Of a stretch of DNA of 64,000 nucleotides, positions 12,977 to 61,129 are shown one piece after another. The position numbers and the translations under genes are program-made. The notes under the pieces were generated by a model. That model did no database searches. It was not told where the DNA came from and saw only the letters and a program-made list of their open reading frames with translations. Location: positions 198,723-262,722 of the forward strand of contig PSMU01000001.1 of NCBI GenBank assembly GCA_040290255.1. The letters are read 5' to 3'. Origin of the DNA: Nitrososphaerota archaeon (GTDB lineage Archaea > Thermoproteota > Nitrososphaeria > PSMU01). Within the stretch, counting starts at the first letter, position 1. Every line of letters begins with the position of its first letter.

Positions 12977-14182
12977 TTACGGCCAGAGCAGGAGATCCCT
13001 GACCGGCCTACCCTGGTAGCTCAGCGCGGCGTTCACCTGCTCTAGGAGCCTGCTGGCCAATGGGCTTGGCAGCGGGATATAGCCCTGCAGCACGATGCTA
13101 TCGCTCTGGCCCGCGGTGAGGAGATACCGAAGCCAGAGGTATACGGCCGCGGCCTCCATGATGTTCGAGTAATGAGCCTTGCAGATGAGATAGCTGAAGG
13201 TGACAATGGGATAAGAGGAGTGGCCCGGCAGGTTCATGAAGAACGAAGTATAGTTGGACCAATCGGCGGTGATGCTGGGCAGGCGGCTCAGGTTCGCGCC
13301 GTTGAGGGCAGCGGCGACCGTTTCGCGGCTGGCGAAGACGGGCAGCCCGTCATGGTTGATGAGCTGTGCCGAGGGGAGGCTGCTGGCCGCGGCGTACTGA
13401 TATTCCACATATCCTATCGAGAAGGGCGTCTGCTGCACCAGCGCGGCGACGCCTTCATTCCCCTTCCCGCCCAGGCCCGTGCCCAGCGCATCGACGGGCC
13501 AGCGCACTGTGAAGCCCGTGCCCACGCCGCTCCCCCTCCACTCCTCGGAGACCCCGTATAGGTACGTGGTGAAGGCGGCCGTAGTGCCGCTGCCGTCGCT
13601 CCTGTGGACCGCTATTATGCTCTCATGGGGCAGCGCGGTGCCCGGGTTGAGCTGCTTTATCCTCGGGTCATCCCAGAAGGAGATCCTGCCCAGGTAGATG
13701 GCCGCGAGCGCCTCGCCATTGAGGATAAGGGGGCTTGAGAGGCCCGGAAGGTTGTAGATGACCGCTATGCTCCCCACGATGACGGGGACCGTGATTATGG
13801 AGCCGTAAAGCCTCACGGCCTCCTGGTACTTCTCCTTGGTCAGGGGGACATCGGAGGCGCCGCAGGTGTAGGTTCCTTGGAGAAAGCCGGAGACGCCGGC
13901 CCCGCTGCCCACCGAGCTGTAGGAGACAGGGATGCCCGCATAGTTCCAGCGGCTCACCCAAACTTGCATCTGCGGGTTAATGAAGCTCGCGCCGCCCATG
14001 ACGAGGTTATACGAAACCTTGGAGGGGGCTATCCTGTCGGAGGGCGCGGGGCTCGATCTTGCCAAAAGTGAGTAAGAGACCGCCGCGGCCGCGGTAAGGA
14101 TGAGCACGACGGCCACCAGAGCTAGCCTGGAGATTCCCTTCACGGCCAGCCTCCCGGCCCCCCTGATATAAGCAAGTCGCAT
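12977..14182 (-). CDS. pstS: phosphate-binding protein PstS (membrane-anchored)
   Basis: 401 aa with N-terminal hydrophobic anchor and PstS-like binding domain (SVGSGAGVSGFLQGTYTCGASD); first gene of pstSCAB-phoU. Confidence 0.85.
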   Translation of the reverse strand: MRLAYIRGAGRLAVKGISRLALVAVVLILTAAAAVSYSLLARSSPAPSDRIAPSKVSYNLVMGGASFINPQMQVWVSRWNYAGIPVSYSSVGSGAGVSGFLQGTYTCGASDVPLTKEKYQEAVRLYGSIITVPVIVGSIAVIYNLPGLSSPLILNGEALAAIYLGRISFWDDPRIKQLNPGTALPHESIIAVHRSDGSGTTAAFTTYLYGVSEEWRGSGVGTGFTVRWPVDALGTGLGGKGNEGVAALVQQTPFSIGYVEYQYAAASSLPSAQLINHDGLPVFASRETVAAALNGANLSRLPSITADWSNYTSFFMNLPGHSSYPIVTFSYLICKAHYSNIMEAAAVYLWLRYLLTAGQSDSIVLQGYIPLPSPLASRLLEQVNAALSYQGRPVRDLLLWP

Positions 14183-14242: not shown

Positions 14243-15313
14243 ATGAGCGAGGAGGGGGAGCTCAGGAGGCTGCAGCGCTCGGGCAGGTCTTCGTACATCT
14301 TGGTCCTGCCCAAGAGATGGGTGGAGGAGGCTCGGCTGAAGGAGGGCAAGAGCGTATATGTGGCCAAGCAGGCCGATGGCTCGCTGCTGATATCGCCCTA
14401 TGGGCCCCTCTCGAAGCCCTCGATGGGCGAGGCGCAGATAGAGCTTAGGCAGGGCGACGACGCCAACGCCATCATCAGGAAGATCATTTCGGCGTATCTG
14501 CACGGCTACAGCGCCTTCTACGTCAGGGCCAAGGGGGCGAGGCTAGGGCTCGCGCAGCGGATGACCGTGAAGGAGACGATCCGAAGGTACCTGATAGGGG
14601 CCGAGGTCGTCTCGGAGTCGGCCGAGGGCGTGGTGGCGCAGGTGCTGGTCAGCTACCCGGAGCTGGACGTGGAGGGGGCGCTGCGAAGGATGGCCCTCAT
14701 AGCGCGGAATATGCACAAGGATGCCCTCGATGCGCTGAGGAGGCTCGACAGGGAGCTGGCCGAGGCCGTCATAAGGGCGGATGATGAGGTGGATAGGTTC
14801 GCGCATTACGTGGACAGGCAGCTGAACTTGGCCGTACAGCTCCACGGCCTGCTGAGGGAGCTGGGCCTCAGGTCGCCGAAGGACTGCCTCAGCTACAAGC
14901 TGATAGCGAAGAGCGTGGAGAGGGTCGCGGACCACGCTTCACAGCTGGCCTCCATAGGGCTGAGCCTAAGGGAGGGGCTGAGCCCGAAGCTGCTCGAGGC
15001 CCTCGGGCAGCTGAGCGAGGGCTCGCTGGAGGTCTTCGGCGGGGCGATGGAGGCCCTGTACAAGAGGAGCTATGAGGCGGCGGAAAGCATCGTGGGCGCC
15101 GCGAAGAGCGTCGCGCGCCAGGGCGAGCAGGCCATTGCGGAGCTCAGCCTGGGCGAAACGGACCTGCGCTGGGCCCGCGTTATACTGGAGCATATAAGGC
15201 GCACGGCCGAGTATGCGAGCGATATAGCCGAAGCGGTGCTGAACCTGACGGCCGAGGGCATCGTCGTGAAGGCGCTCGGGCCGAGGGAGCAGGCCCTAGC
15301 GCGGGGCCCCTAG
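14243..15313 (+). CDS. phosphate uptake regulator, AbrB/SpoVT-type DNA-binding domain fused to PhoU domains
   Basis: N-terminus SYILVLPKRWVEEARLKEGKSVYV (swapped-hairpin AbrB-like) followed by two PhoU-like helical repeats; divergent from pstS. Confidence 0.75.
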   Translation: MSEEGELRRLQRSGRSSYILVLPKRWVEEARLKEGKSVYVAKQADGSLLISPYGPLSKPSMGEAQIELRQGDDANAIIRKIISAYLHGYSAFYVRAKGARLGLAQRMTVKETIRRYLIGAEVVSESAEGVVAQVLVSYPELDVEGALRRMALIARNMHKDALDALRRLDRELAEAVIRADDEVDRFAHYVDRQLNLAVQLHGLLRELGLRSPKDCLSYKLIAKSVERVADHASQLASIGLSLREGLSPKLLEALGQLSEGSLEVFGGAMEALYKRSYEAAESIVGAAKSVARQGEQAIAELSLGETDLRWARVILEHIRRTAEYASDIAEAVLNLTAEGIVVKALGPREQALARGP

Positions 15314-17433: not shown

Positions 17434-17545
17434 ATAGCGGGGGTTCTCCCCTGCGGCTACAGGTGTGGATTTGAATTCGGCGCCCTAGGCTCCACCGACC
17501 TCCGGGTTATGAGCCCGGCGGGGTAACCTGGCTCCCCTACCCCGC
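17434..17545 (-). tRNA. initiator-type tRNA-Met (CAT) with two putative introns (about 16 nt and 21 nt) in the T-arm region
   Basis: Minus strand: acceptor AGCGGGG / CCCCGCT (A1:U72), D-arm GGGG-AGCCAGGTTA-CCCC, anticodon arm CCGGG-CTCATAA-CCCGG with three G:C pairs, T-loop TTCAAAT; 112 nt span needs about 37 nt of insertion to give a 75 nt tRNA. Confidence 0.55.
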
Positions 17546-17586
17546 TGGCGCCCAAGCGGGCCCCCTCTAATATAGGCCTTTCGGTG

Positions 17587-27934: not shown

Positions 27935-29500
27935 GTGGCAAGGGAGGACCTGCTCGACCGCCTCAAGGCGCTGGCCAGGATCGTGGAGGAGGGCATCGAC
28001 CCCTATCCTCACAGCTTCACGCCCACCCACGCCATAGCCGAGATAAGGAGGGCCAACCAGGGCGAGCTAAGGCTGAAGGGCCCGCTCGCGACCGCGGGGA
28101 GGGTGATGGCCATCAGGAGGCACGGGAAGGTGCTCTTCGCGGACCTGCTGGATGAAGGCGAGCGGCTTCAGATCTACCTCACCGCTGAGCGGCTGGGCGA
28201 CAGGTATTCCTGGTTCCTCAGGAACATCAACAGGGGCGACTTCCTGGGCGTAAGGGGCGAGCTCTTCTTCACGCAGAAGGGCGAGCTCACGCTGAATGTG
28301 GATGAGTACGTGCTGCTGGCCAAGTCCCTGCTCGAGCTGCCCAGCAAGTGGCATGGGCTCAGGGACGTGGAGGAGAGGTACAGGAAGAGGTACCTGGACC
28401 TACTGCTGAACGGCGAGGCCAGAAGGATCCTGCTGGTGCGCTTCTCGCTCATCAGGGAGCTCAGGAGGCAGCTGGAGGCCCGTGGGTTCATAGAGGTCGA
28501 GACGCCCATCCTCCAGCCCCTCTATGGAGGGGCCGCGGCCCGCCCCTTCAGGACGACGATAAGGGCCCTGGGCGAGGAGTGGTACCTGAGGATCTCGGAG
28601 GAGCTGCCGCTGAAGAAGCTGCTGGTGGCGGGCTTCGATAGGGTCTACGAGATAGGGAAGGTCTTCAGGAACGAAGACATAGACGTCATGCACAACCCCG
28701 AGTTCACGATGCTGGAGGCCTACCAGGCCTATGCGGACTACAACGACATGATGAGGCTCGCCGAGGAGGTGCTCTGCGCCGCCATCAGGGGCGTGCTGGG
28801 GGGCTATAGGGTGAGCTGGATGGGCAAGGAGCTGGACTTCACGCCGCCCTGGCGGCGCATAAGGCTCTACGAGGCCCTCGAGAAGTACGCCGGCGTGCGC
28901 GCCCAGGAGGCGGCGGAGGAGGAGCTGCGCTCGCTCCTCAGGCAGAAGGGGCTCGAGGCGCCCAGCGAGATGCCCCGGGGGCTCCTGCTGGAGAAGGTCT
29001 TCGACCTCTACTGCAGGCCTCAGCTGCTGAACCCCACCTTCGTGCTCGACTATCCTCGTGAGACGACGCCGCTCTGCAAGCCCCATAGGGCCCAGCCGGG
29101 GCTCGTGGAGCGCTTCGAGCTGTTCGCGGGCGGGCTCGAGCTGGCCAACGCCTACAGCGAGCTGAACAATCCGCTGCTGCAGCACAGGTTCTTCCTGGAG
29201 GAGCAGAGGATACATGCGGCGGAGGTGGAGATGGCCCACCGCTATGACGCGGACTTCGTGGAGGCGCTGATGTACGGCATGCCGCCCGCCGGCGGCATCG
29301 GAATAGGCATCGACAGGCTGGCCATGCTGCTGGCCGGGGCCCCGAGCATAAAGGAGGTGCTGCTGGCGCCCATCATGAAGAGGGTCCTCAATCCATCGCC
29401 CTTCGAGGGCGTAGAGGTGGAGGAGCTGACGCGCAAGTTCTTAAAGGAGGCGCCCCCGCTCAGGCCAGGGACGGGCCAGTGGTCTAGCCTGGTAGGATGA
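27935..29500 (+). CDS. lysS: lysyl-tRNA synthetase, class II
   Basis: Anticodon-binding OB domain plus class II motifs (KVFRNEDIDVMHNPEFTMLEAYQAY, GGIGIGIDRLAML); GTG start; last 28 nt overlap tRNA-Val. Confidence 0.9.
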   Translation: MAREDLLDRLKALARIVEEGIDPYPHSFTPTHAIAEIRRANQGELRLKGPLATAGRVMAIRRHGKVLFADLLDEGERLQIYLTAERLGDRYSWFLRNINRGDFLGVRGELFFTQKGELTLNVDEYVLLAKSLLELPSKWHGLRDVEERYRKRYLDLLLNGEARRILLVRFSLIRELRRQLEARGFIEVETPILQPLYGGAAARPFRTTIRALGEEWYLRISEELPLKKLLVAGFDRVYEIGKVFRNEDIDVMHNPEFTMLEAYQAYADYNDMMRLAEEVLCAAIRGVLGGYRVSWMGKELDFTPPWRRIRLYEALEKYAGVRAQEAAEEELRSLLRQKGLEAPSEMPRGLLLEKVFDLYCRPQLLNPTFVLDYPRETTPLCKPHRAQPGLVERFELFAGGLELANAYSELNNPLLQHRFFLEEQRIHAAEVEMAHRYDADFVEALMYGMPPAGGIGIGIDRLAMLLAGAPSIKEVLLAPIMKRVLNPSPFEGVEVEELTRKFLKEAPPLRPGTGQWSSLVG

Positions 29501-29546
29501 CGCCCTTACACGGCGTTGGTCGCCGGTTCAAATCCGGCCTGGCCCA
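29473..29546 (+). tRNA. tRNA-Val (TAC), intron-less
   Basis: Acceptor GGGCCAG / CTGGCCC, anticodon arm ACGCC-CTTACAC-GGCGT, T-arm GCCGG-TTCAAAT-CCGGC; 74 nt; CCA not encoded. Confidence 0.8.
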
Positions 29547-29551
29547 CCCGC

Positions 29552-29941
29552 CTATGGCTCCTCCGCAAGGACCTCGCGCAGCTCCTGGGCGCTGCCCCTC
29601 AGCACGAGCTCCAGGGCGTTCTCCTGGCCCGGGGTGAGGCGCCCCCTCAGCAGCTCATCCTTGCGCAGCCGCAGGACCAGCTCGGCCCTGCCGGCCTCGA
29701 CCTCCTGCCTGAGCGCCCGGCGCAGGTCCTGGGGCAGCGCCCTCAGCAGCCTCAGCGCCAGGGCCCTGGCCCCCTGGCCCCTCAGCTCGGCGGTGTAGTA
29801 GAGGATGGGGTTGCCGAAGTGTCCCTGAAGCCTTTGTAGCCGCAGCTCCTGCGGAGGGAGGCCCAGCCCGCTCCTGAGCGCGGCCAACACCCTCGGCTCG
29901 TCCTCGGTGGCGTGCAAGATGAGCGAAAGCCTTATCCTCAC
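29552..29941 (-). CDS. conserved hypothetical protein, ~129 aa (start unresolved)
   Basis: C-terminal 129 aa of track ORF 29552..30175 look protein-like (VRIRLSLILHATEDEPRVLAAL ...); upstream part is low-complexity and would overlap kae1; GTG at 29941 sits ~30 nt downstream of a TAATAAA box on the minus strand. Confidence 0.4.
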   Translation of the reverse strand: MRIRLSLILHATEDEPRVLAALRSGLGLPPQELRLQRLQGHFGNPILYYTAELRGQGARALALRLLRALPQDLRRALRQEVEAGRAELVLRLRKDELLRGRLTPGQENALELVLRGSAQELREVLAEEP

Positions 29942-30013
29942 AGCGCCGGCTCTGCCGCTTGGGGGCCCAGAGCCTTTATTAGCTTTGAGAGGGCCCGGGG
30001 GGAGAAGGCGAGG
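29942..30013. promoter_or_regulatory. bidirectional promoter region (AT-rich TATA-like element)
   Basis: cctttattagctttgagagg between the minus-strand hypothetical gene and kae1. Confidence 0.35.
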
Positions 30014-31030
30014 ATGGCCCTTATGCTTCTGGGCATCGAGTCGACCGCCCACACCTTTGGCGTGAGCGTCGTGGAGGCCGAGGGCAATGAGGGCCGCATC
30101 CTGAGCGACGTCAAGGAGGTCTACAAGGCCAAGCCCGGCTCGGGCATAGAGCCGGGGGAGGCGGCGCAGCACCATGCGGCCGTGGCCCCGGGGCTGCTCG
30201 CGCGGGCCCTTAGGGCGGCGGGGACCTCGGTGAAGGATCTTGCCGCCGTGGCCTACTCGGCCGGCCCCGGCCTGGGCCCCTGCCTAAGGGTGGGCGCCAC
30301 CGTGGCCAGGGCGCTGGGACTCTACTATCGTAAGCCGCTGGTGCCCGTGCACCACGCAATAGGGCACATCGAGCTGGGCTGCCTGCTCACGGGCGCGCGT
30401 AACCCCATCGTGCTGCTCGTGACCGGAGGGCACACGGCGATCCTGCTCTTCTCGTCCGGCAGGTGGAGGATCTTCGGCCAGACGCTCGACATAACGGTGG
30501 GCAAGCTCTTCGACCAGTTCGGCAGGGAGGTGGGCCTGAGCAGGCCGGAGCTCGCGGGCTTTGGGGGGCCCTCCATCGAGGCCCAGGCCGGGCGCTCCTC
30601 CGCGTACCATGAGCTGCCGTACAGCGTGAAGGGTAACGACGTGTCTTTTTCCGGCCTGCTCACGGAGGCCCTGAGGCTCTGGAGGGGCGGCGTGCCGCTG
30701 GAGGAGGTCTGCTTCTCCCTTCAGGAGACGGCCTTTGCGATGCTGGCCGAGGTGGTCGAGAGGGCGCTGGCCTTCACGGGGCTCAGGGAGCTGCTGCTCG
30801 TGGGCGGCGTGGCCGCGAACGAAAGGCTGAGGGCCATGATGCAGGGGGTGGCGAGGCGCTATTCGGCCTCCTGCTATGCGATCCCAGCGCAGTATGCGGG
30901 GGACTGCGGGGCCCAGATCGCCTGGGCGGGGGCCCTGGCGCTGGCCTCGGGCATGAAGGTGAAGCCCGAAGAGGCCTTCGTCCGGCAGGCCTGGAGGATC
31001 GACAGGGTGGCGGTCCCATGGAGAGGCTGA
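30014..31030 (+). CDS. kae1: tRNA N6-adenosine threonylcarbamoyltransferase Kae1
   Basis: MALMLLGIESTAHTFGVSVVE start, metal-binding HHAIGHIE; track start 29912 rejected as it reads through the promoter. Confidence 0.9.
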   Translation: MALMLLGIESTAHTFGVSVVEAEGNEGRILSDVKEVYKAKPGSGIEPGEAAQHHAAVAPGLLARALRAAGTSVKDLAAVAYSAGPGLGPCLRVGATVARALGLYYRKPLVPVHHAIGHIELGCLLTGARNPIVLLVTGGHTAILLFSSGRWRIFGQTLDITVGKLFDQFGREVGLSRPELAGFGGPSIEAQAGRSSAYHELPYSVKGNDVSFSGLLTEALRLWRGGVPLEEVCFSLQETAFAMLAEVVERALAFTGLRELLLVGGVAANERLRAMMQGVARRYSASCYAIPAQYAGDCGAQIAWAGALALASGMKVKPEEAFVRQAWRIDRVAVPWRG

Positions 31031-31650
31031 TGGCCAGGGGGGCGGAGGCGGACCTCTTCTTGGGCCGCTGGCTGGGCCACGAGGCGGTGGTGAAGGTGCG
31101 GCCGCCGAGGGGCTATAGGCATGAGCGGCTCGATGTGGCGCTACGTGCCAGGAGGACGCTGAGGGAGGCCGAGCTGCTGGTGGCGGCGAAGCTCGCAGGG
31201 GTGCCCACGCCGCAGCTCTTCTTCGTTGACGCGAAGGGCATGAAGCTGGTGATGGGCAGGGTGAAGGGGAGGCGCCTGAAGGAGCTGTTGGAGAGGAGCC
31301 CCTCCAGGGCCCTTCCGCTCTTCCAGCAGCTGGGCCGCCATGTGGCCCTTCTGCACAGGAGCGGCATAATGCACGGCGACCTGACCACGAGCAACGTCTT
31401 CGTGAGCGATGACGGCGTGCTCGTGCTCATCGACTTCGGCCTCTCCTACCGCTCACAGAGGGAGGAGGATATGGCCGTGGACATACACCTCTTAAAATCC
31501 GTGCTGGAGGGGGCCCACACGAGGAGCGCGCGGAGGGCCTTCTCGCTCTTCATGAAGGGCTATGCCGAGCTGCTGGGCGATGCGGCGCCGCGCATCCTAA
31601 AGCGCGTCTCCGAGATCGAGAGGAGGGGAAGGTATGCGAGGGAGGGATAG
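31018..31650 (+). CDS. bud32: KEOPS kinase Bud32
   Basis: Small atypical kinase (GAEADLF ... MHGDLTTSNVFV ... LIDFGLS); separate ORF overlapping kae1 by 13 nt. Confidence 0.85.
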   Translation: MERLMARGAEADLFLGRWLGHEAVVKVRPPRGYRHERLDVALRARRTLREAELLVAAKLAGVPTPQLFFVDAKGMKLVMGRVKGRRLKELLERSPSRALPLFQQLGRHVALLHRSGIMHGDLTTSNVFVSDDGVLVLIDFGLSYRSQREEDMAVDIHLLKSVLEGAHTRSARRAFSLFMKGYAELLGDAAPRILKRVSEIERRGRYAREG

Positions 31651-32693: not shown

Positions 32694-34127
32694 ATGGGCG
32701 ATCCCAAGGCCCTGGCCGAGGCCGCCGAGGAGGCCGCGGAGCTCCTCCTACGCCAGGTGAGGAGGGGCAGGCGGCTCATCATAGTCGGCCACCTCGATGC
32801 CGATGGGCTCACCAGCAGCAGCCTGCTCGCGAAGGCCATCTACGGCGAGGGGGGCCACTTTCACCTGACCATCGTCAGCGACCTCACGCCCCAGCTCGTG
32901 CGCACGCTGGCGAAGGATGAGAGGGGCTTCTACGTCTTCGTGGACCTGGGCGCGGGCCTGGCCAAGGACCTGCAGGAGAACTTCGGGGATAGGTGGCTGG
33001 TCATAGACCATCACGAGCCCCCCGAGGAGGAGCGCGCGCTGCCCTCCGTCTTCAACTGCTGGAAGTACGGCTATGATGGCGGGGAGGAGGCCTGCTCGGC
33101 CACGATGGCGTACTTGGTGGCCAAGGCCCTGAGGGCCAGGAACCAGGGCGAGGCATGGCTGCCTGTGCTGGGCGCGCTGGCGGACAGGCAGGATAGGGGC
33201 GAGGGGGGCTCGCTGATATCGCTGAACAGGGCCGCGCTGGAGGAGGCGCAGCAGTACAGGCCCGACGGCGCCACGCCCCTTCTTCACATGTCGAGGGACC
33301 TCCTGCTGCCCGGCAGGGAGACGAGGCCGGTGCATGAAGCGCTGGCCGCGCTCACGCTTCCCTACCTGCCCAACCTCTCGGGCAACAGGGATGCCTGCTA
33401 CTCGGCCCTAAAGGCGGCGGGCCTGAGGCTGAAGGAGGGCGAGAGGTGGCGCGTGCTGGCCGAGCTGACCGAGGACGAGAAGAAGCTGCTGCTGGATACT
33501 ATATTGGCCCACGTGCAGGTGGAGGGGAGCAAGGACTGGCTCCTGCAGGAGCTGGTGGGCGAGGTCTACACGCTGCTGTACGAGGATAGGTTCACGCCCC
33601 TAAGGGATGCGAGGGAGTTCTCCACGCTGCTGAACGCCTGCGGCAGGACGAGGCGCCACTCGCTGGGCGTGGCGCTCTGCATGGGCGACAGGGGGCCCGC
33701 CATGAACGAGGCCGTGAGGGCGCTGCGCGAGTACAGGCAGACGATCACGGGGACCGTGGCCCAGCTCACATCGCTTCCCGAGAAGGTCATCGAGAGGGGC
33801 CCCCTCGCGCAGGTCATAGGCGATGGCATCGTAACGGAGGAGATGACGGGCGTGATCGCCTCCGTGCTCAGCTCGCTGCCCCGCTTCGCCAGGAGCTTCC
33901 TGTTGCTCAGGAGCGCCACGGTGGACGGCGACATAAAGCTCTCGATAAGGGCGCCCTACCTCTCGCCGACCCGCGTGAACCTGGGCCAGGTGATGAGGGA
34001 GGCGGCGCAGAAGGTGGGCGGCATAGGCGGGGGCCATGCGAGGGCCGCGGGGGCCCGCATCCCCTTCTTCGCCTATGACAAGTTCGCGCGCGAGGTGGCC
34101 TCATGGCTGGAGGGCCATGCGCCATAG
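32694..34127 (+). CDS. DHH/DHHA1-family phosphoesterase (archaeal RecJ-like nuclease)
   Basis: DHH motif region (IVGHLDADGLTSSS, VIDHHEP) and C-terminal GGGHARAAG (DHHA1). Confidence 0.8.
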   Translation: MGDPKALAEAAEEAAELLLRQVRRGRRLIIVGHLDADGLTSSSLLAKAIYGEGGHFHLTIVSDLTPQLVRTLAKDERGFYVFVDLGAGLAKDLQENFGDRWLVIDHHEPPEEERALPSVFNCWKYGYDGGEEACSATMAYLVAKALRARNQGEAWLPVLGALADRQDRGEGGSLISLNRAALEEAQQYRPDGATPLLHMSRDLLLPGRETRPVHEALAALTLPYLPNLSGNRDACYSALKAAGLRLKEGERWRVLAELTEDEKKLLLDTILAHVQVEGSKDWLLQELVGEVYTLLYEDRFTPLRDAREFSTLLNACGRTRRHSLGVALCMGDRGPAMNEAVRALREYRQTITGTVAQLTSLPEKVIERGPLAQVIGDGIVTEEMTGVIASVLSSLPRFARSFLLLRSATVDGDIKLSIRAPYLSPTRVNLGQVMREAAQKVGGIGGGHARAAGARIPFFAYDKFAREVASWLEGHAP

Positions 34128-35073: not shown

Positions 35074-36342
35074 GTGTCCCGCGTGGCGGTCGTGGGGGGA
35101 GGGCTCGCGGGCGTCGCCGCGGCCCAGGCCCTGCTGCGGGCAGGGGAGGAGGTGGACCTATATGAAAGGGGCGGCCTAATAGGGGTTGACTGGTCGCTCC
35201 TGCCATATCTGCTGTACAGCGGCCAGGGCGCGCCCGAGGGCCCCTCGCTACAGGTTCCTGCCGCCCAAGAGCTGCCGCGCCGCCCCGAGGCCAGGCTGCT
35301 GCTGGGGCACAGCGTGATGGAGGTAAGGAGGAGCGGCAACGGGTACCTGCTCCGGCACTCCTCGCGCGGCGCCATGGGGGAGGCCTTCTACGAGAGGGTC
35401 ATCATCGCCACGGGCGCCCGGCCCAGGCAGAGGGCCGAACAGAGGAGGCACCTGTACCGCGCCGACGTGCCCGAGCACGTGGCGGAGTTCGTGAGGGAGA
35501 GGGAGGGCTTCGCGAGGGTGGCCGTGCGCGGCGACTCCCCTCCCTCGCTGGCCGCTGCCCTTGGTTTGCGCGAGAGGGGACTGGATGTGCTCTACATAGG
35601 CGCCAGGCCGCTGCTGCGCGGCCATGCCGATGCGGCGCTGGCCCCCCTGCTGGAGGAGGCCTGCAGGGCCGGCGGGCTCAGGGTGCTCACGCCGCGCCTC
35701 AGCTTTAGGGTACTGGGCAAGGGGCGCGTGGAGGCGGTGCAGGTGGATGCCGAGGTGGTGCCCTGCGACTGCGTGCTGGAGTTCCCCTCTTACTTGCCCG
35801 AGACGCAGCCGCTGGAGGGCCTGGACCTCCGGCTGGGCCCCTTCGGCATAACGGTGAGCGAGGCGATGGAGGCGGGCCCCGGCCTTTGGGCGGCGGGCAG
35901 GTGCATCTGCCTGGAGGATGGCACGCGCAGCCTCTACTCACCCTCCTTCAGCTACATCACGGGACACATAGCGGGCCTCCGCGCGGCCGGCCTGCGCCTT
36001 GCCGCCCCCTCCCTCGAGCCCGTGGAGGCCTGGAGGCTGGGCATGCTGGAGCTGGCCTTCGCGGGCTCCAGGCCCAAGGGACCCCCCCTCGCCAGAAAAT
36101 TCCTCACGATCAGGCCCTCCCTGGGCGAGGGGGGCGTCCGGGGCGTGGCCCTGCTGAAGGGGGGCCTGGTGAAGAGGGTTGAGCTGCTGGGCAGGGGGGC
36201 CCTCGCCTGGGCGCGCTGGTGCTCCCCGCTCATCTCCAGGGGGATAAGCTATGAGGAGCTGGCCCTCTGCGAATGGGGACACGTGCCCTACGAGAGCAGC
36301 CTCCCGTTATTATCCGCTTCCCTCAGCCCTGGCCGCCCTTAG
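35074..36342 (+). CDS. FAD/NAD(P)-binding oxidoreductase (pyridine nucleotide-disulfide oxidoreductase-like, divergent)
   Basis: Rossmann dinucleotide motif VAVVGGGLAGVAAAQALLRAGEEVDLYE and VIIATGARP; otherwise divergent; convergent with nuoC. Confidence 0.6.
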   Translation: MSRVAVVGGGLAGVAAAQALLRAGEEVDLYERGGLIGVDWSLLPYLLYSGQGAPEGPSLQVPAAQELPRRPEARLLLGHSVMEVRRSGNGYLLRHSSRGAMGEAFYERVIIATGARPRQRAEQRRHLYRADVPEHVAEFVREREGFARVAVRGDSPPSLAAALGLRERGLDVLYIGARPLLRGHADAALAPLLEEACRAGGLRVLTPRLSFRVLGKGRVEAVQVDAEVVPCDCVLEFPSYLPETQPLEGLDLRLGPFGITVSEAMEAGPGLWAAGRCICLEDGTRSLYSPSFSYITGHIAGLRAAGLRLAAPSLEPVEAWRLGMLELAFAGSRPKGPPLARKFLTIRPSLGEGGVRGVALLKGGLVKRVELLGRGALAWARWCSPLISRGISYEELALCEWGHVPYESSLPLLSASLSPGRP

Positions 36343-36868
36343 CTTCGCCCTCGCCCAGCGTGAGCCCGTGCTCGGCCCTCTCCTCTTCATGCCACTTCCT
36401 GAGCTGAAAGTCCTTGCGAAGCGGCGGCAGGTCGTTCCAGTCCTCCGGCAGGAGCAGGCGGCGCAGGTCCGGGTGGCCCTCGAAGGAGATGCCCAGCATC
36501 TCGAACTGCTCCCTCTCATGGTACTCCGCGCCCGGCCAGATCGCCACCAGGCTCGGCGCCCTGGGCTGCGCGCGGTTTAGCCTCGTGGCCAGCAGCACCA
36601 CGGCCCTTCTCCACTCATCGCTGGAGACCGTGCCCACGACGTACGTGAGCTCGATCTCGCCGGCCTTTGGGTAGTCGGTGCCGGTGATCATGTGCAGGTG
36701 GTCAAAGCCCAGCTCCTTGAGCAGGGCCGCCGCCTCCTTCAGGTGCTCCTGCTTAACCTCCACCTTGACCCTGTTACGATGCGGCGAGCTCACCCTTAGC
36801 GCCCGGGCCCCCAGCCTCTCCGCCAGCAGCTGGCCCAGCCGCGCCTCCAGCGCGCCCTGCTGGCTCAT
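36323..36868 (-). CDS. nuoC: complex I-like subunit C (NuoC, 30 kDa subunit)
   Basis: HEREQFEMLGISFEGHPDLRRLLLPEDW is the NuoC signature region. Confidence 0.85.
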   Translation of the reverse strand: MSQQGALEARLGQLLAERLGARALRVSSPHRNRVKVEVKQEHLKEAAALLKELGFDHLHMITGTDYPKAGEIELTYVVGTVSSDEWRRAVVLLATRLNRAQPRAPSLVAIWPGAEYHEREQFEMLGISFEGHPDLRRLLLPEDWNDLPPLRKDFQLRKWHEEERAEHGLTLGEGEAKGGQG

Positions 36869-37380
36869 CCCTCCCTTTCGTGCACCATCGAGCCCTGCCG
36901 CAGCTCCGGCTGCACGTAGGGGCTTGAGGGGGCCTTAGGGGGCACGGCCAGCTCATAGGGCGTGTAGTAGAGATGGCCCCTATCGAACTCCGAGAGCTCC
37001 TGGTCGGGCGTCATCTCGAGCGCGTAGAAGGGGCAGGCGTCGACGCAGAAGCCGCAGAAGACGCACCGCCCATAATCCACGGCCGGGTAGATGCCCTTCT
37101 TGTTCTGGGGCCTCCTCTCCTCGGGCAGGGGCACCATCTCTATGGCTTGGGCGATGTTCTCGCAGGCTATGTAGCAGAGCGAGCAGCCCGTGCACTTATC
37201 CAAGTAGAGCAGGTGCCTCCCCCTCCATCCGGGAAGGCCCGCGCCCCTCTTGGGGTCAAAGGCGTAGTTCGTGGCCAGGTTGGTGAGGAAGGCCTCGGGG
37301 TAGCGCACGGTCATCCGGGGGCGCACCAGGTGCCTTATCGCGCTGCCCAGCGCCCTCACATGCTTCGCCAGCGCGCTCAC
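36865..37380 (-). CDS. nuoI: complex I-like subunit I (NuoI, 2x[4Fe-4S] ferredoxin)
   Basis: Two CxxCxxCxxxCP motifs (CTGCSLCYIACE, CVFCGFCVDACP); start set to GTG 37380 preceded by GGAGG, directly after nuoB stop; upstream part of the track ORF is low-complexity. Confidence 0.85.
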   Translation of the reverse strand: MSALAKHVRALGSAIRHLVRPRMTVRYPEAFLTNLATNYAFDPKRGAGLPGWRGRHLLYLDKCTGCSLCYIACENIAQAIEMVPLPEERRPQNKKGIYPAVDYGRCVFCGFCVDACPFYALEMTPDQELSEFDRGHLYYTPYELAVPPKAPSSPYVQPELRQGSMVHEREG

Positions 37381-37961
37381 TCCTCCCTCCCCTCGACGTA
37401 CTGGCCCAGCGCGTTCGAGCGTCTTATCTTCTCCTGAAGCAGCACGATGCCCTCCAGGATCTGCTGCGCGGTGGGCGGGCAGCCGGGTATGTACACGTCC
37501 ACGGGTATGATCCTGTCCACGCCCTGCAGGACGTTGTAGCTGTCCACGTAGAGCCCCCCGCTGATGGCGCAGGCTCCTATCGCGATGCACCACTTGGGCT
37601 CGGGCATCTGGTCCCAGACGAGCTTAAGGCGGGGCGCCATCTTCCTTGTTACCGTGCCCAGCACGACGAGCAGGTCACACTGGCGCAGCGAGCCGAAGGC
37701 CTCGAGCACGCCGAACCTCTCCATATCCCAACGGGCCCCGGAGGCGGCCCCCCACTCCACGGAGCAGCAGGCCGTCTCCAGGTGCACGGGCCAGAGGCTG
37801 TAGAGTCGCCCCCAGTTCAGGAGATAGGCCAGCGGGTCCCTTACATTCTTCTCGAGGGCTTCCTGCAGCGCCTTAAAGACGAGCTTCGTCTGGCCCGCCA
37901 GGGCCACGAGCCCGGCCCCCGCGGCCGCCGCCGGCCTTATCTCCGCTATCTTCACGGGCAC
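37377..37961 (-). CDS. nuoB: complex I-like subunit B (NuoB, N2 cluster subunit)
   Basis: ETACCSVEW, IGACAISGG and PGCPP cysteine motifs. Confidence 0.9.
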   Translation of the reverse strand: MPVKIAEIRPAAAAGAGLVALAGQTKLVFKALQEALEKNVRDPLAYLLNWGRLYSLWPVHLETACCSVEWGAASGARWDMERFGVLEAFGSLRQCDLLVVLGTVTRKMAPRLKLVWDQMPEPKWCIAIGACAISGGLYVDSYNVLQGVDRIIPVDVYIPGCPPTAQQILEGIVLLQEKIRRSNALGQYVEGREE

Positions 37962-38045
37962 GATGGGCTTCGGCCGGGTCGCGGTCTAATAAAGCTTTAG
38001 AGGCCGTTAACTCATTTAAGGGGGCAGCGGAGGAGCCTGGCGGAG
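37962..38045. promoter_or_regulatory. divergent promoter region between nuoB and nuoA
   Basis: AT-rich tctaataaagctttagagg ... ctcatttaagg elements in a GC-rich context. Confidence 0.35.
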
Positions 38046-38402
38046 ATGGCGGGGCTCGGCACGTTACTGCTCACGGCGGGCTTTGTGGCCGCGGCGCTGG
38101 CGCCGCTGTACATCATCTACCTGCTCTTCGCGCCCCGGCGGCCCAACCCGGTGAAGAACGAGACCTTTGAATGCGGCCAGCCGCCCTCGGGCAGCGCGCG
38201 GGTGCACCTCTTCATGCAGTACTACCCCTTCCTGCTGATGTACCTAGTGCTGGATGTAACCACGCTCTTCCTCTATGCCTGGTCGCTCAGCGGTGCGCCC
38301 TACAGCCCCTCGAGCCTGCTGCTGATCTACGCCTTCTTGGGCGCGCTGCTGCTCCCGATAGCCTATACGCTTAAGCTCTCATACAAGAGGGAGCTGTGGT
38401 AG
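38046..38402 (+). CDS. nuoA: complex I-like subunit A (NuoA)
   Basis: 118 aa membrane protein with NETFECGQ and the NuoA-type C-terminal helix. Confidence 0.8.
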   Translation: MAGLGTLLLTAGFVAAALAPLYIIYLLFAPRRPNPVKNETFECGQPPSGSARVHLFMQYYPFLLMYLVLDVTTLFLYAWSLSGAPYSPSSLLLIYAFLGALLLPIAYTLKLSYKRELW

Positions 38403-39527
38403 ATGGCCGAGCGGGGGCTCCTGCAGCTGCTGAGGGGGCTGCTGCACCTCATCTTCTGGGCATTGATCTTCCTTCCCATCTTCGTGCTTCCCGTCTATTA
38501 TATGCTCGAGCAGCCGCTGCTGAGGCCCTTCATCTCCTCGCTGATGAGCGAGCTCACGAACCCCGCCAGCTTCGCCTTCCGGCTGATCGTCTACCCCGGC
38601 TTCACCTTCGTGGTGCTCTACGCGACCTTCCTGGTGCTGATAGAGAGGAAGCTGGCGGCTAAGGTGCAGCTGCGCGTGGGGCCGCAGTACGCGGGCAGGT
38701 TCGAGGGCATCCTGCAGAGCTTCGCGGACCTGCTGAAGATGTTGGGCAAGGAGATGATCGTGCCCGCGGGCGCGGACAAGCCGCTCTTCTTGGCGGCGCC
38801 CTTCCTGGCCACGGTGCTGGCCGGCTCGCTGATCGCGCTCGTGCCCGTATCGCCCACCTCGGCCATCGCGAACCTCAGCTATGGGCTGCTGGCCTTCTTC
38901 GCGATCCTTTCGCTCTACCCCATCATCGTCCTGCTCGCGGCGTGGTCGAGCAACAACAAGTTCACGCTCGTGGGCGGCCTCAGGGCCCTGCACCAGCTCA
39001 TCGCCTATGAGGTGCCCATGCTCGTCGCCGCGCTCACGCCGGCCCTGCTGGCCCGCTCGATAAACCCCCTCGACATAGCCGGCGCGCAGGTTATGCGAGG
39101 TATCCCCTTCCTCATGCTCGCCCCCCTCTCGGCCTTCGTCTTCTTCTGCTGCATGGTGGCCGAGCTTGAAAGGATCCCCTTCGATATACCCGAGGCGGAC
39201 AGCGAGATCGTGGCCGGCTGGCTGACGGAGTACTCCAGCGTGAGCTACCTGCTTCTTTACGGCGCCGCGCCCTACATAAAGATGTATGCCTTCGCGGGCC
39301 TCTTCACGGGGCTCTTCCTAGGAGGCTGGGCGGGCCCCTCCTTCCTGCCGCCCGACCTCTGGTTTCAGCTCAAGGCGTTCGCGGTCATCCTGCTGGTGCA
39401 GCTGCTGAGGGCCGTGTACCCCCGCTATAGGATGGATCAGCTGCTCGCCCTGGGCTGGGGGAGGCTCTTTGTGCTGGCCCTGGTGAACCTGGTGCCCGCG
39501 CCCTTTATAGCAGCGTACTTGGCCTAG
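38403..39527 (+). CDS. nuoH: complex I-like subunit H (NuoH)
   Basis: 374 aa polytopic protein with NuoH pattern (RVGPQYAG ... YEVPMLV ... ELERIPFDIPEADSEIV). Confidence 0.9.
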   Translation: MAERGLLQLLRGLLHLIFWALIFLPIFVLPVYYMLEQPLLRPFISSLMSELTNPASFAFRLIVYPGFTFVVLYATFLVLIERKLAAKVQLRVGPQYAGRFEGILQSFADLLKMLGKEMIVPAGADKPLFLAAPFLATVLAGSLIALVPVSPTSAIANLSYGLLAFFAILSLYPIIVLLAAWSSNNKFTLVGGLRALHQLIAYEVPMLVAALTPALLARSINPLDIAGAQVMRGIPFLMLAPLSAFVFFCCMVAELERIPFDIPEADSEIVAGWLTEYSSVSYLLLYGAAPYIKMYAFAGLFTGLFLGGWAGPSFLPPDLWFQLKAFAVILLVQLLRAVYPRYRMDQLLALGWGRLFVLALVNLVPAPFIAAYLA

Positions 39528-39535
39528 GGCGCGGC

Positions 39536-40021
39536 ATGGTCGATCTAGCCTTCATCGCGCTCGCCTCGCTCACGGTGGGGGCCGCGGTGCTCTCGCTCGA
39601 GGCGAGGCAGCTGGTCTACGGCGCGGTGAGCCTCGCGCTCTTCTTCCTCTTCGTGGGCGGCCTCTTCGCGCTCCTGGGCGCGCCCTTTCTGGCCATGTTT
39701 CAGATCTTCATAAACGTGGGGGCCGTGGCCGTGCTGATCATCTTCACGGTCATGCTGGTCAGCCCGCAGCGGTGGCAGGAGCGGCGGCCAAGGGAGGCCC
39801 GGCTGGGGCTCGTGGGGCTGCTCATCACGCTCTTCGGGCTCGTGCCCCTGCTCTATCCCCTTGTGCAGGGGGTGGGGCTCTTGAGCTCGCCGCCCACGCT
39901 CGGCGGGGAGCTGGGCTCGCTGCTGCTGGAGCGCTACGGCCTGGCGCTGGTGCTGCTGGCCTTTCTATTGGCCGCGGCCATAGCGGCCTCCGTCACGCTG
40001 GCGAAGGAGGAGAAGGGCTGA
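39536..40021 (+). CDS. nuoJ: complex I-like subunit J (NuoJ)
   Basis: 161 aa membrane protein, NuoJ-like; stop overlaps nuoK ATG. Confidence 0.8.
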   Translation: MVDLAFIALASLTVGAAVLSLEARQLVYGAVSLALFFLFVGGLFALLGAPFLAMFQIFINVGAVAVLIIFTVMLVSPQRWQERRPREARLGLVGLLITLFGLVPLLYPLVQGVGLLSSPPTLGGELGSLLLERYGLALVLLAFLLAAAIAASVTLAKEEKG

Positions 40022-40329
40022 TGGCCGCCCTGGGCGATTACCTGCTGCTTTCGCTGCTGCTGCTGGCCGTGGGCATCTATGGCCTGGTCTCGAAGAGGGA
40101 TGCCATAAGGCTTCTCTTCGCGCTGGAGATCATCCTGAACGCCGCCCTGCTCAACGCCGTGCTCTTCACGCGCACGCCGGCGGCCCTGGCGCCCGCGGGC
40201 CAGGTGCTGGCGCTCTTCATCATCTCGATAGGGGCCTGTGAGGTGGCCGTGGGCCTGGCCATAATAATCCTGCTCTACAGGCGCACGGGCGACGTGGACG
40301 TTTTGGAGCTGAGGAAGGTCAGGGATTAG
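40021..40329 (+). CDS. nuoK: complex I-like subunit K (NuoK)
   Basis: MAALGDYLLLSLLLLAVGIYGL ... GACEVAVGLAIII; internal ATG of track ORF 39772..40329, overlapping nuoJ stop (TGATG). Confidence 0.85.
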   Translation: MAALGDYLLLSLLLLAVGIYGLVSKRDAIRLLFALEIILNAALLNAVLFTRTPAALAPAGQVLALFIISIGACEVAVGLAIIILLYRRTGDVDVLELRKVRD

Positions 40330-40379
40330 CGCCCAACTCCTTAAATAAAGGGCCCTAGGGCCCCGTGCAGCCGTGAGGC

Positions 40380-41978
40380 TTGAGTCCAGGGCCCCCCTTC
40401 ACGGGGGCAAGAGCTCCAGGCCTCTGGCCTTGGTCGGCGGCGCAGGGCCCTTGGCAGGGGGGTGATGGCTTGCCCATCCCCTACTCGCTCACCCAGGCGA
40501 CGTTCCTCCCCCTCGCCGGGGCCGTGCTCGCCTATTTCCTGGGCGGGAGGCTCCTGAGGAGGATCGGCTGGCTGGCCTTCGCGCTGCTCTCCTACTCGAG
40601 CCTGCTGCTGGGCCTGAGCTACCTAGAGCCGGCAGGGGGGTTCCCCTTGCTCGAGCGCTTCGGCTGGACCTCGGTGCCTGGCCTGAGCTTCGGGCTCCTG
40701 GGCGATGGCCTCAGCCTGCCCGTGGCGTTAGTGATGAACGTGGCCGCCGCCGCGGTGGCCGTCTATTCGATGCCCTACATGGCCAGGAGGATGGCGGCGC
40801 TTTACGGCGAGGAGAGGGGCTCGTTCTGGGGGCTCTACTACGCCAACTACCTGCTCTTCGCCGCGGGGCTCACGGGCGTGGCGCTGGCCACGAACCTGAT
40901 CGAGCTGTACATCTTCGTCGAGCTCATCCTCATCCCCGCATACCTGCTCCTGGGCCTCTTCGGCCAGGTTGACCGGCAGCGCATTGCGCTCATGTACTTC
41001 ATCTGGAACCAGCTGGGCGCCTTCATCTTCCTTGCCGGCATCCTCGTGGCCTGGTTTGGAACGAGGAGCTTTGACATCGCCGCCCTTGGCGCGCTAGGGG
41101 GCCCCTTGGCGCTCCTGGTCACGGGGCTCATGCTACTGGGCTGGCTGATCAAGATGGCCACCTTCGGCTTCCACGTATGGCTCCCCTTCGCGTATGGCGA
41201 ATTCCCCAGCTCCGTCGCGGCCATCAGCGCCATCACGGGACTGGGAAGCTACGTGCTCACCAGGCTGCTGGTCCTTAACCTCTACTCCTCATTCCAACAG
41301 CTGGCCCATCTTATCATCCTGCTGGCCGTCGTGACGCTGCTGTACGGCGGCGCGCTGGCCCTCGCGCAGGAGGACATCAACCGGCTTTATGCATGGTCCA
41401 CGGTCAGCCAGACGGCCTACCTGCTGCTGGGCCTGGCCAGCCTGAGCGCGCTGGGCATCGCGGGCAGCATCTTCCTCTTCCTGGCCCAGGTGCTGGGCAA
41501 GGCGGTGCTCTTCTGCGTGGCGGGCATCCTGGTGACGCAAACGGGCCTGAGGCAGATGGGCAGGATGGGCGGCTATGCCGCGAGGATGCCCCTCACCGCG
41601 CTCCTGGCGCTGGGCGCTTCACTCATCATCTCCGCCGTGCCGCCGACGCTGGGCTTTCAGGGCGAATGGTTGCTCTTTACGGGGCTTCTGGGCTCGGCCC
41701 TGTACGGGCCCCCCTTCTCGCTGGCGCTGGGCTTCGCCGCCCTGCTGGGCACGATGCTCACCGTGGCCTACACGCTCTGGGCCGTTAAGCGCATCTTCTT
41801 CGGCCCGCTGAGCGGGGAGGCCGGGGAGCTGAGCGAGGCGCCCAAGAGCATGACGCTGCCCCTGCTCGCGCTCCTGGCCCTCGCGCTGCTACTGGGCATC
41901 TACCCCGAGCCCCTGCTGGGCCCGCTCTACAGGTACCTGGCTTCAGCGCTGCCCTCGGGCCTGCCGCTGGGAGGATGA
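40380..41978 (+). CDS. antiporter-like membrane subunit (NuoM/N-related, degenerate; fourth antiporter-like subunit)
   Basis: Polytopic, NuoM/N-like, but the conserved W-L-P-D-A motif reads FHVWLPFAYGEFPSS; N-terminal ~30 aa of the track ORF are probably not translated (possible TTG start at 40470). Confidence 0.75.
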   Translation: MSPGPPFTGARAPGLWPWSAAQGPWQGGDGLPIPYSLTQATFLPLAGAVLAYFLGGRLLRRIGWLAFALLSYSSLLLGLSYLEPAGGFPLLERFGWTSVPGLSFGLLGDGLSLPVALVMNVAAAAVAVYSMPYMARRMAALYGEERGSFWGLYYANYLLFAAGLTGVALATNLIELYIFVELILIPAYLLLGLFGQVDRQRIALMYFIWNQLGAFIFLAGILVAWFGTRSFDIAALGALGGPLALLVTGLMLLGWLIKMATFGFHVWLPFAYGEFPSSVAAISAITGLGSYVLTRLLVLNLYSSFQQLAHLIILLAVVTLLYGGALALAQEDINRLYAWSTVSQTAYLLLGLASLSALGIAGSIFLFLAQVLGKAVLFCVAGILVTQTGLRQMGRMGGYAARMPLTALLALGASLIISAVPPTLGFQGEWLLFTGLLGSALYGPPFSLALGFAALLGTMLTVAYTLWAVKRIFFGPLSGEAGELSEAPKSMTLPLLALLALALLLGIYPEPLLGPLYRYLASALPSGLPLGG

Positions 41979-41979
41979 T

Positions 41980-44118: not shown

Positions 44119-45587
44119 TGCCGATCCTCTCCGCGCTGATCCTGCTGCCGCTGCTGGGGGCCCCGATAGGCTATGCGCTCTTCAGGCTTAACAGGCGCGC
44201 CGGCCTTGCCTTCTGCCTCTCGGTCACGGCCGCCACGCTGGCGCTCTCGCTGGCAGCCTATGCCCTGGTGGCCCTGCGCCCCTCCCCTCCCGGAGCCTAT
44301 GCGCTGGTGGAGCGCTACAGCTGGGTCTCCCTGCCCGACTTCTCATTCGATCTGCTGCTCGGTCTGGATGGGCTGGGCGCGGTCCTGCTGGTGCTCTCCT
44401 CCCTCCTTACGCTTCTGGCGATGGCCGGCTCCCCCGCGCTCATCAGAGAAAGGGAGGGCGAGTACTACTCGCTGATGCTGCTCTTCGAGGGGGCGATAAA
44501 CGGCGTGTTCAGTTCCCTGAACCTGATCTTCTTCTATATCTTCTGGGACCTGGTGCTGATCCCCATGTTCCTCTTCATAGGCATCTGGGGCGGGCCGCGG
44601 CGCAAGTATGCGGCCCTCAAGTTCCTGCTGTACACCTTCACGGGAAGCGTGGTCATGCTCACCGGCTTCCTGATCGCCTACTTTGGCTCGCCCGTGCGCT
44701 CCTTCAACCTGCCCGAGCTCATGGGCCACGTGCCGGCTACGCTGCAGCTGTATTCGTTGCTCGCGGCCTTCATAGGCTTCGGGATAAAGCTGCCCGTCTT
44801 CCCCTTCCACAGCTGGCTGCCCGATGCGCACGTGGAGGCGCCCGCGCCCATCAGCGTGCTCTTGGCTGGGGTGCTGCTCAAGATGGGCGGCTACGGCTTC
44901 ATAAGGATAGGCCTTCAGCTCTTTCCCGAGGCCTCAAGGCAGCTCGCCTGGCTCTTCATGGCCGTTGGGCTGGCCACGATGTTCTACGGGGCCATCGTGG
45001 CGCTCCTCTCATCGGACCTCAAGAGGATGATCGCGCTCACGAGCATCAACCACATGGGCTTCGTGCTCCTGGGCGCCTATGCCGCCATAGCCTCCGGCGC
45101 CGCCCTGGGCCTGCAGGGGGCCATCTTTCAGATGTTCAACCACGGCCTGGCCATAGGCTCCCTCTTCTTGCTCTCGGGCTATATACATGAGCAGGCGGGG
45201 ACTAGGGAGATCAGCCGGCTGGGCGGGCTAAGGTATGCCATGCCGCGCACCGCGGCGCTCCTGATGCTCAGCAGCCTGGCGGGCATGGGCTTCCCCCTCT
45301 TCTCGAGCTTCCTAAGCGAATTCATGGTCATCGCGGGTGCCGTGGCGGGCTACAGGGCCTACTCGGTGGCCGTGCTGGTGCCCGTCATCACGGGGGCCTA
45401 CTTTATGTGGATGCTGAGGCGCACGGTGCTCAGCGAAAGGAACGAAGCGCTGCCGGCGCACGACCTGCCGACGCGTGAGGCGCTGCTGCTCCTGGCCTTC
45501 CTGCTGCCCCTCACGCTGCTCCTCTTCATGCCCTCGCTCATCCTCTCGCCGCTGCAGCCCTTGGTGGAGAGCGTTATGGGGCCATGA
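44115..45587 (+). CDS. nuoM: complex I-like subunit M (NuoM)
   Basis: FHSWLPDAHVEAPAPISVLLAGVLLKMGGYG. Confidence 0.85.
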   Translation: MMPILSALILLPLLGAPIGYALFRLNRRAGLAFCLSVTAATLALSLAAYALVALRPSPPGAYALVERYSWVSLPDFSFDLLLGLDGLGAVLLVLSSLLTLLAMAGSPALIREREGEYYSLMLLFEGAINGVFSSLNLIFFYIFWDLVLIPMFLFIGIWGGPRRKYAALKFLLYTFTGSVVMLTGFLIAYFGSPVRSFNLPELMGHVPATLQLYSLLAAFIGFGIKLPVFPFHSWLPDAHVEAPAPISVLLAGVLLKMGGYGFIRIGLQLFPEASRQLAWLFMAVGLATMFYGAIVALLSSDLKRMIALTSINHMGFVLLGAYAAIASGAALGLQGAIFQMFNHGLAIGSLFLLSGYIHEQAGTREISRLGGLRYAMPRTAALLMLSSLAGMGFPLFSSFLSEFMVIAGAVAGYRAYSVAVLVPVITGAYFMWMLRRTVLSERNEALPAHDLPTREALLLLAFLLPLTLLLFMPSLILSPLQPLVESVMGP

Positions 45588-61076: not shown

Positions 61077-61129
61077 GGCGCGAAGGGGCAATGTTAAATA
61101 ATAATGTTATTCGCCCGCAGCCCAAGGGC
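61077..61129. promoter_or_regulatory. bidirectional promoter with repeated AATGTTA elements
   Basis: caatgttaaataataatgttattcg between mtaD and aIF2-beta; the track ATG at 61091 lies inside it. Confidence 0.35.

Follow-up and report, generated by a model that had tools for sequence, protein, structure and literature searches.

An initiator-type tRNA-Met(CAU) gene with two putative T-arm introns in a deep-branching Nitrososphaerota lineage

We analyzed a 64-kb stretch of archaeal DNA (64,000 nt, referred to here as the window) and found on its minus strand a locus that is supported, from its sequence features, as an initiator-type tRNA-Met(CAU) gene with two non-canonical introns; its assignment to initiation likewise comes from those features. 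We consider it very likely that this is a functional archaeal initiator gene whose T-arm is split by two introns that would be removed by the tRNA splicing endonuclease. The original prediction, made from the sequence, had proposed an initiator tRNA-Met gene interrupted by two non-canonical introns, and three results bear this out: the bulge-helix-bulge (BHB) register of both introns, the ARAGORN call on the spliced sequence and an ungapped alignment to archaeal initiator tRNA genes.

All of the tRNA elements that had been proposed were found on the minus strand in the expected order. The 5' part of the precursor reads AGCGGGG-TA-GGGG-AGCCAGGTTA-CCCC-G-CCGGG-CTCATAA-CCCGG-AGGTC-GGTGG on the minus strand, and after GGTGG the 3' part continues as [AGCCTAGGGCGCCGAA]-TTCAAAT-CCAC-[ACCTGTAGCCGCAGGGGAGAA]-C-CCCCGCT-A. 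The span had been given as 17434-17545, which is one base off, as A1 to A73 occupy 17435-17546 (Table 1). Removal of about 16 nt had been predicted between the T-stem 5' strand and the T-loop, and this insert is exactly 16 nt long (17491..17476) and lies at 53/54. For the second insert the predicted length of about 21 nt was right (it is exactly 21 nt) but the place was not, since the insert lies at 64/65, one base inside the T-stem, rather than at the T-stem/acceptor junction. Since the bases on either side of each junction are different, a shift of either intron boundary would alter the product. Upstream of the gene, the TATA of the ACCGAAAGGCCTATATT block is centered about 25-26 nt from A1, and we regard this block as a putative promoter from its position and conservation.

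Table 1. Features of the interrupted initiator tRNA gene, with the introns of the related species (L127) for comparison
Feature	Position in window	Strand	Description	Counterpart in L127
Pre-tRNA-iMet(CAU) gene	17435..17546	(-)	112 nt; A1 = 17546, discriminator A73 = 17435; CCA not encoded; based on minus-strand reading, Rfam RF00005 with permissive filters, and ARAGORN after in-silico splicing	
Exon 1	17492..17546	(-)	tRNA positions 1-53: acceptor 5' strand, D-arm, anticodon arm, variable loop, T-stem 5' strand	
Anticodon CAT	17511..17509	(-)	in exon 1	
Intron 1	17476..17491	(-)	16 nt, AGCCUAGGGCGCCGAA, between 53/54	AGCGACCCCGCGCCGAA (17 nt)
Exon 2	17465..17475	(-)	positions 54-64: T-loop TTCAAAT and CCAC of the T-stem 3' strand	
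Intron 2	17444..17464	(-)	21 nt, ACCUGUAGCCGCAGGGGAGAA, between 64/65	ACCUGCCCAACCCAGCAGGGGAGAA (25 nt)
Exon 3	17435..17443	(-)	positions 65-73: last T-stem base, acceptor 3' strand CCCCGCT, discriminator A	
Putative archaeal promoter	17569..17585	(-)	BRE/TATA-like ACCGAAAGGCCTATATT; based on sequence reading and conservation in L127	

When both inserts were removed in silico, ARAGORN called a tRNA-Met(CAT) of 75 nt with all four arms of the cloverleaf, the length that had been predicted for the mature species; with only one insert removed, ARAGORN called either nothing or a malformed tRNA. In the spliced 75-mer, the anticodon CAU occupies a standard 7-nt loop within a complete cloverleaf, the acceptor stem begins with an A1:U72 pair (AGCGGGG...CCCCGCT), and the anticodon stem CCGGG/CCCGG has three consecutive G:C pairs, G29-G31:C39-C41. 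The A1:U72 pair and the three G:C pairs at 29-31:39-41 are identity features of archaeal and eukaryotic initiators, and set archaeal initiators apart from elongator tRNA-Met and tRNA-Ile2. As both are present here, we rejected a reading of the gene as an elongator tRNA-Met or a tRNA-Ile2.

We also compared the spliced 75-mer with six uninterrupted 75-nt archaeal initiator tRNA genes, which were among the matches listed in a scan of genome contigs (Thermococcus, Woesearchaeota, Micrarchaeota, Iainarchaeum and others). The alignments required no gaps and gave 63-67 identities in 75 positions, and these genes carry the same A1:U72 and G:C features; moreover, nucleotides 27-73 of the spliced tRNA are identical to those of a Woesearchaeota gene. 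Thus, the ungapped match to uninterrupted genes is enough to set the intron boundaries, with no recourse to a structural model.

It had been anticipated that standard scanners may miss this gene, and they do. Both ARAGORN and Rfam with default filters at the gathering threshold failed to call the unspliced gene, and in the 64-kb window both called only a tRNA-Val. With permissive filters, the Rfam tRNA model (RF00005) gave 33.9 bits over 17435-17546 (gathering score 29), in an alignment that models the T-arm as a 52-nt insertion. Further searches of the 64-kb window for hidden tRNAs (ARAGORN with its intron option, motif scans and Rfam in E-value mode) returned the tRNA-Val only, and no other CAU tRNA was found within the window, which was the whole scope of the search within this genome. 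The tRNA-Val(TAC) gene, at 29473-29548 (+), overlaps by 28 nt the 3' end of an ORF at 27935-29500 (+) that encodes a class II aminoacyl-tRNA synthetase of the Asp/Asn/Lys type.

The formation of a BHB-like structure at both proposed junctions was the test set beforehand for the two introns. As described in the excerpt of PMC4090602 used here, the BHB motif consists of a 4-bp helix between two 3-nt bulges that hold the splice sites, with the first two anticodon bases lying within the central helix of the canonical motif, and it occurs in a strict form (hBHBh') and in relaxed forms (hBH or HBh'). From this definition we derived a register in which exon nucleotides -6..-3 pair with intron nucleotides n-5..n-2, the 5' bulge is made of the last two exon bases and the first intron base, and the 3' bulge is made of the last two intron bases and the first base of the next exon. 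We found that intron 1 forms a relaxed HBh' motif in this register and that intron 2 probably does too, and that for both the cleavage sites given by the BHB geometry are exactly the junctions that the cloverleaf requires. The helix on the outer side of the 3' site is weak or absent in each intron, and thus the motif is of the relaxed HBh' form, not the strict hBHBh' form.

Intron 1 has a full central helix, in which C48 G49 G50 U51 pair with G11 C12 C13 G14 (CGGU/GCCG; 4/4 pairs), flanked by a 5' bulge of G52 G53|A1 and a 3' bulge of A15 A16|U54. Its 3-bp h' hairpin, GCC-UAG-GGC, stacks directly on the central helix, an arrangement recovered by a local ViennaRNA fold; we saw no convincing outer helix by the 3' bulge. 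Intron 2 has three of the four central pairs (U60 C61 C62 with A18 G17 G16) and an A59.G19 mismatch. Its 5' bulge, A63 C64|A1, is a perfect 3-nt bulge between two stacked helices, while A20 A21|C65 forms the 3' side, where an outer helix is absent. The 5-bp h' hairpin of intron 2, CCUGU-AGCC-GCAGG, appeared in the minimum free energy (MFE) and centroid structures of the whole precursor as well as in local folds. Both introns have the ends A...GAA.

To gauge how readily such structures arise, we shuffled each intron in 200,000 trials, and the observed BHB register was reached at a frequency of 9e-4 for intron 1 and 2e-4 for intron 2. A blind scan of all combinations of start and length yielded about 20 other weak BHB candidates in the GC-rich precursor; the informative point is the match of the BHB sites to the cloverleaf junctions, not the motif by itself. 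With respect to folding energy, the MFE structure favored by ViennaRNA has the central helix of intron 2 shifted slightly out of this register. The full two-BHB structure has an energy of -43.6 kcal/mol, which is 5.8 kcal/mol above the unconstrained MFE (-49.4 kcal/mol) and 3 kcal/mol above a fold in which only the acceptor, D and anticodon stems were enforced (-46.6 kcal/mol).

The locus is conserved in a related species, L127, represented by three JGI contigs, which hold an orthologous tRNA and, in the same gene order, an 82%-identical homologue of the protein encoded upstream of the tRNA. The L127 exons are identical to those of the window gene at 74 of 75 positions, the sole change falling in the D-loop in exon 1, and the introns lie at the same two sites, 53/54 and 64/65. 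The introns themselves differ in sequence and length (Table 1), with changes that either fall in the h' loop or preserve pairing: in intron 1 the third h' pair is changed from C:G to G:C, a compensatory substitution, and the loop is altered; in intron 2 an h' pair is changed from U.G to C:G, the single pairing-preserving change there, and the loop is enlarged from 4 to 8 nt. In both introns, the bulges and central helices are the same as in the window gene. The shuffle test on intron 2 of L127 gave a P-value of about 5e-6. The ACCGAAAGGCCTATATT block is also identical in L127, whereas divergence is seen in the 3' trailer and in the leader that separates this block from the tRNA. As judged from sequence comparison, a functional gene whose introns are under structural constraint would be expected to show this pattern, and a pseudogene would not.

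We looked for the gene in more distant Nitrososphaerota by synteny walking. No initiator tRNA gene was found near homologues of the upstream PF09821 protein (P0004, P0005, P0006 and P0009), or near homologues of the PAC2 protein (P0133, P0139 and P0142). Since synteny walking gave no further copies in these more distant Nitrososphaerota, the evidence for intron 2 comes from two species. We also note that the tRNA in the window is flanked by a PAC2-HSP20 gene pair, and that in one more distant relative (L184, 5737-6472) this pair lies about 2 kb from a gene for the RNA ligase RtcB, at a locus with no initiator tRNA gene.

Intron 1 belongs to a class that is found widely in other archaea. We scanned metagenomes for a pattern of initiator tRNAs in which 15-45 nt separate the variable loop from the T-loop, and obtained 38 loci (L139-L176). 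One of these (L154) was excluded as an artefact with Ns, and in another (L141) the insert lies one position away from 53/54; in the remaining 36 of 38 loci the intron is at exactly 53/54. Nearly all of these introns resemble those of the window in their ends, with 35 of 36 starting with A and 33 of 36 ending in GAA, and in all 36 the four bases preceding the last two of the intron are complementary to C48-N51.

We examined covariation in a set made of the 36 loci, the window gene and L127, trimmed to a 33-column frame and comprising 32 distinct sequences. In the central helix and the first three h' pairs, 96.9% of cells were paired, and compensatory changes on both sides were seen in six of the seven pairs of intron 1 (51 cells). 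None of 500 shuffles gave covariation this high, and when the partners were slid out of register only 14-64% of cells were paired. The central helix also covaries with the T-stem, with G:C replaced by A:U at position 49, and by U:A or A:U at position 50, which is what is predicted for a BHB built partly from exon sequence.

Exact look-ups of neighboring proteins placed several of the 53/54 contigs in DPANN (Candidatus Nanoarchaeia, Woesearchaeota, Aenigmarchaeota and archaeon GW2011_AR3). Relative to the introns in this set, intron 1 of the window has the same insertion point, the same BHB architecture and similar ends, but it is the shortest (16 nt, compared to 17-33 nt in the set, with 17 in L127) and its h' helix has 3 bp, whereas those of the DPANN-type introns have at least 5 bp. 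The DPANN-type genes differ further in that they lack the 64/65 intron, and many carry extra inserts in the D-arm region instead. The 64/65 intron was absent from all other loci of the 53/54 metagenome scan and was seen only in the window species and L127. Low-GC metagenome contigs commonly carry initiator genes with an intron at 53/54 (for example L144, 3182-3256; L142, 4617-4694; and L158, 6984-7059), and many of these genes seem to be interrupted in the D-arm too, as the sequence upstream of the anticodon arm is not a normal 5' half.

We infer transcription, cleavage by EndA and ligation from these features, and suggest the following course for the maturation of the tRNA. The gene would probably be transcribed from its own TATA/BRE-type promoter into the 112-nt precursor, flanked by a short leader and trailer, and the introns at 53/54 and 64/65 would keep the T-arm of this precursor from forming. 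The 3' part of each intron would pair with the four exon nucleotides that precede the last two of the upstream exon to make the central helix, and its 5' part would fold into the small hairpin h'. In the relaxed HBh' arrangement that results, a 3-nt bulge would hold the 5' splice site, and the 3' splice site would be found 2 nt beyond the central helix. A broad-specificity heterotetrameric alpha2beta2 tRNA splicing endonuclease, as reported for Thaumarchaeota, could cut the four sites, and an RtcB-type ligase would join the three exons. After ligation, the T-stem (49-53:61-65) would form and CCA would be added to give the 75-nt tRNA. Among the 30 window ORFs scanned against Pfam, there was no tRNA splicing endonuclease (EndA) and no RtcB.

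We considered that the locus might be a decaying pseudogene that had acquired two insertions in the T-arm, with the real initiator tRNA encoded elsewhere, as might be suspected from the lack of any call by ARAGORN or default Rfam. We judge this to be very improbable, since the exons match at 74 of 75 positions in two species despite a diverged leader and trailer, the promoter block is conserved in L127, and both inserts are in exact BHB register with substitutions that preserve the helices. Furthermore, inserts of the 53/54 class, with strong covariation, occur in 30 other distinct archaeal initiator genes. We also weighed a second alternative, in which only intron 1 is spliced by the endonuclease and the 21-nt insert, its BHB being too degenerate, is either removed in some other way or retained as an unusual expansion. 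Intron 2 does lack an outer helix h and has only three pairs, beside an A.G mismatch, in its central helix; the MFE structure picks another register for it, its 64/65 site is not among the positions in the excerpt of PMC4090602 used here, and no other sequence in the metagenome scan has an intron there. Nevertheless, the 5' site of intron 2 lies in a perfect 3-nt bulge and its 3' site is 2 nt past the helix, as in intron 1, and the two introns share the ends A...GAA. Its register was rarely reached by shuffling (2e-4 in the window and 5e-6 in L127), and L127 retains the stem and flanks of intron 2 while the loop has been replaced. Moreover, without the removal of intron 2, neither a T-stem nor continuity of the acceptor stem would be possible. 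Thus, we also regard splicing of intron 1 by itself as a poor explanation, with little chance of being correct.

The opposite strand offers one further reading, that of an H/ACA-like small RNA related to Pyrobaculum sRNA 205, to which the tRNA features would be secondary. This reading comes from an Rfam match to PyrR205 at 17479-17536 (+), antisense to the tRNA and intron 1, with 24.9 bits. This falls short of the gathering score (35.6), with an E-value of 0.46 for the whole window. In contrast, the tRNA on the minus strand is conserved and exceeds its own threshold, and every base of the reverse complement is accounted for as tRNA and intron. The reverse complement of the PyrR205 consensus forms no tRNA anticodon loop. 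The PyrR205 match is probably a chance match of GC-rich hairpins, and we consider the small-RNA reading extremely unlikely.

An initiator tRNA gene with two putative T-arm introns fits well with what is known of archaeal tRNA genes. Crenarchaeota (especially Thermoproteales), Thaumarchaeota, Aigarchaeota and Nanoarchaeota are all well known to have tRNA genes with several introns or with introns at non-canonical positions, in which the BHB motifs are relaxed. In the excerpt of PMC4090602 used here, 53/54 is listed as a non-canonical intron site, and Thaumarchaeota are described as having an alpha2beta2 endonuclease that accepts hBH and HBh' motifs. A Thaumarchaeota-specific intron model is part of tRNAscan-SE 2.0, and 107 non-canonical introns, as well as genes with two or three introns, were reported in the thaumarchaeal genomes analyzed (PMC8450103). 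Three multi-intron tRNAs are known in Caldiarchaeum (PMC3082918; PMC3293823), and in Thermofilum pendens the initiator tRNA is encoded by a permuted gene that is broken in the T-loop, with the junction at 59/60 (PMC3218864).

The window gene shares several features with the multi-intron genes of Crenarchaeota, Thaumarchaeota and Aigarchaeota (the SPLITSX/tRNAscan-SE 2.0 class; PMC4090602; PMC8450103; PMC3082918). Its introns of 16 and 21 nt are within the typical range of 12-25 nt, and like these genes it has more than one intron, non-canonical positions that include 53/54, and the relaxed HBh' form, which is probable for intron 2; its host phylum is also reported, in the same excerpt, to use the alpha2beta2 endonuclease, as in this known class. 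The window gene differs from this class in its host, a deep-branching Nitrososphaerota lineage with 66% GC that is known only from metagenomes, in having both introns in the T-arm, separated by only 11 nt, and in its 64/65 site, which does not appear among the intron positions given in that excerpt of PMC4090602. It resembles the Thermofilum pendens initiator gene (PMC3218864) in that the T-arm region of the initiator is disrupted and repair by the BHB splicing machinery is needed; the Thermofilum gene is circularly permuted, while the window gene is collinear and its two introns are ordinary cis-introns located elsewhere in the tRNA.

Thus, the structure of the gene is of an already well-known archaeal kind and is ordinary for this part of the archaeal tree; the sole detail that is possibly new is the 64/65 site, and what is known of the splicing mechanism is unaffected by the finding. 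The main value of the finding lies in annotation, in that a genome annotated by ARAGORN or default Rfam would seem to be without an initiator tRNA, and recovery of the gene needs an intron-aware archaeal search. The known disrupted tRNA genes of archaea are also joined by a doubly interrupted initiator gene, whose host is a thermophilic Nitrososphaerota lineage about which little is known, and the occupation of the 53/54 site of this tRNA in very distant archaea is a data point on whether such introns are ancient or repeatedly gained. One could speculate that the 53/54 intron is ancient and vertically inherited, given its occurrence in DPANN and in deep-branching Nitrososphaerota, and that 64/65 is a previously undescribed site, gained in this lineage, although we think this unlikely. 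If it were true, the 53/54 intron would predate the split of the major archaeal groups, and the whole T-arm of the initiator tRNA, possibly the only one, would depend on two splicing events; such a dependence might provide a checkpoint for translation initiation or protect the gene against integrating elements.

The identity of the host was examined with proteins encoded in the window, which has a G+C content of 66.4% and in which the tRNA locus is 100% identical to that in six hot-spring metagenome contigs. A RecJ/GAN-like protein (32694-34127) is identical to MER3601367.1 ('Nitrososphaerota archaeon'), with next relatives at 78%, 76%, 53% and then about 45% identity, and the protein upstream of the tRNA has homologues that carry the labels Thaumarchaeota or Nitrososphaerales. 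Thus, the host belongs to a deep-branching lineage of high GC within the Nitrososphaerota (Thaumarchaeota sensu lato), and not to the Thermoproteales. The original prediction had drawn a parallel to the multi-intron genes of Thermoproteales, which holds for the kind of gene but not for the host; such introns are known in the Nitrososphaerota as well (PMC8450103).

Several other genes in the window are related to translation or tRNA. Kae1 (TsaD) is encoded next to a small, Bud32-like kinase at 29912-31650 (+), and a protein with an aIF2-beta/eIF5-type domain is encoded at 61091-61543 (+); aIF2 is the factor that binds the initiator tRNA. The window also contains a cluster of NADH:quinone oxidoreductase (nuo-type) genes at 36323-47035, a pst/PhoU phosphate-uptake cluster at about 10.4-15.3 kb, whose identified members are a PBP-type binding protein (12977-14182) and PhoU (14243-15313), and the glycine-cleavage T and H genes at 21.2-22.7 kb. 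These nuo, pst/PhoU and glycine-cleavage genes are an ordinary housekeeping context, with a very high third-position GC of about 0.9.
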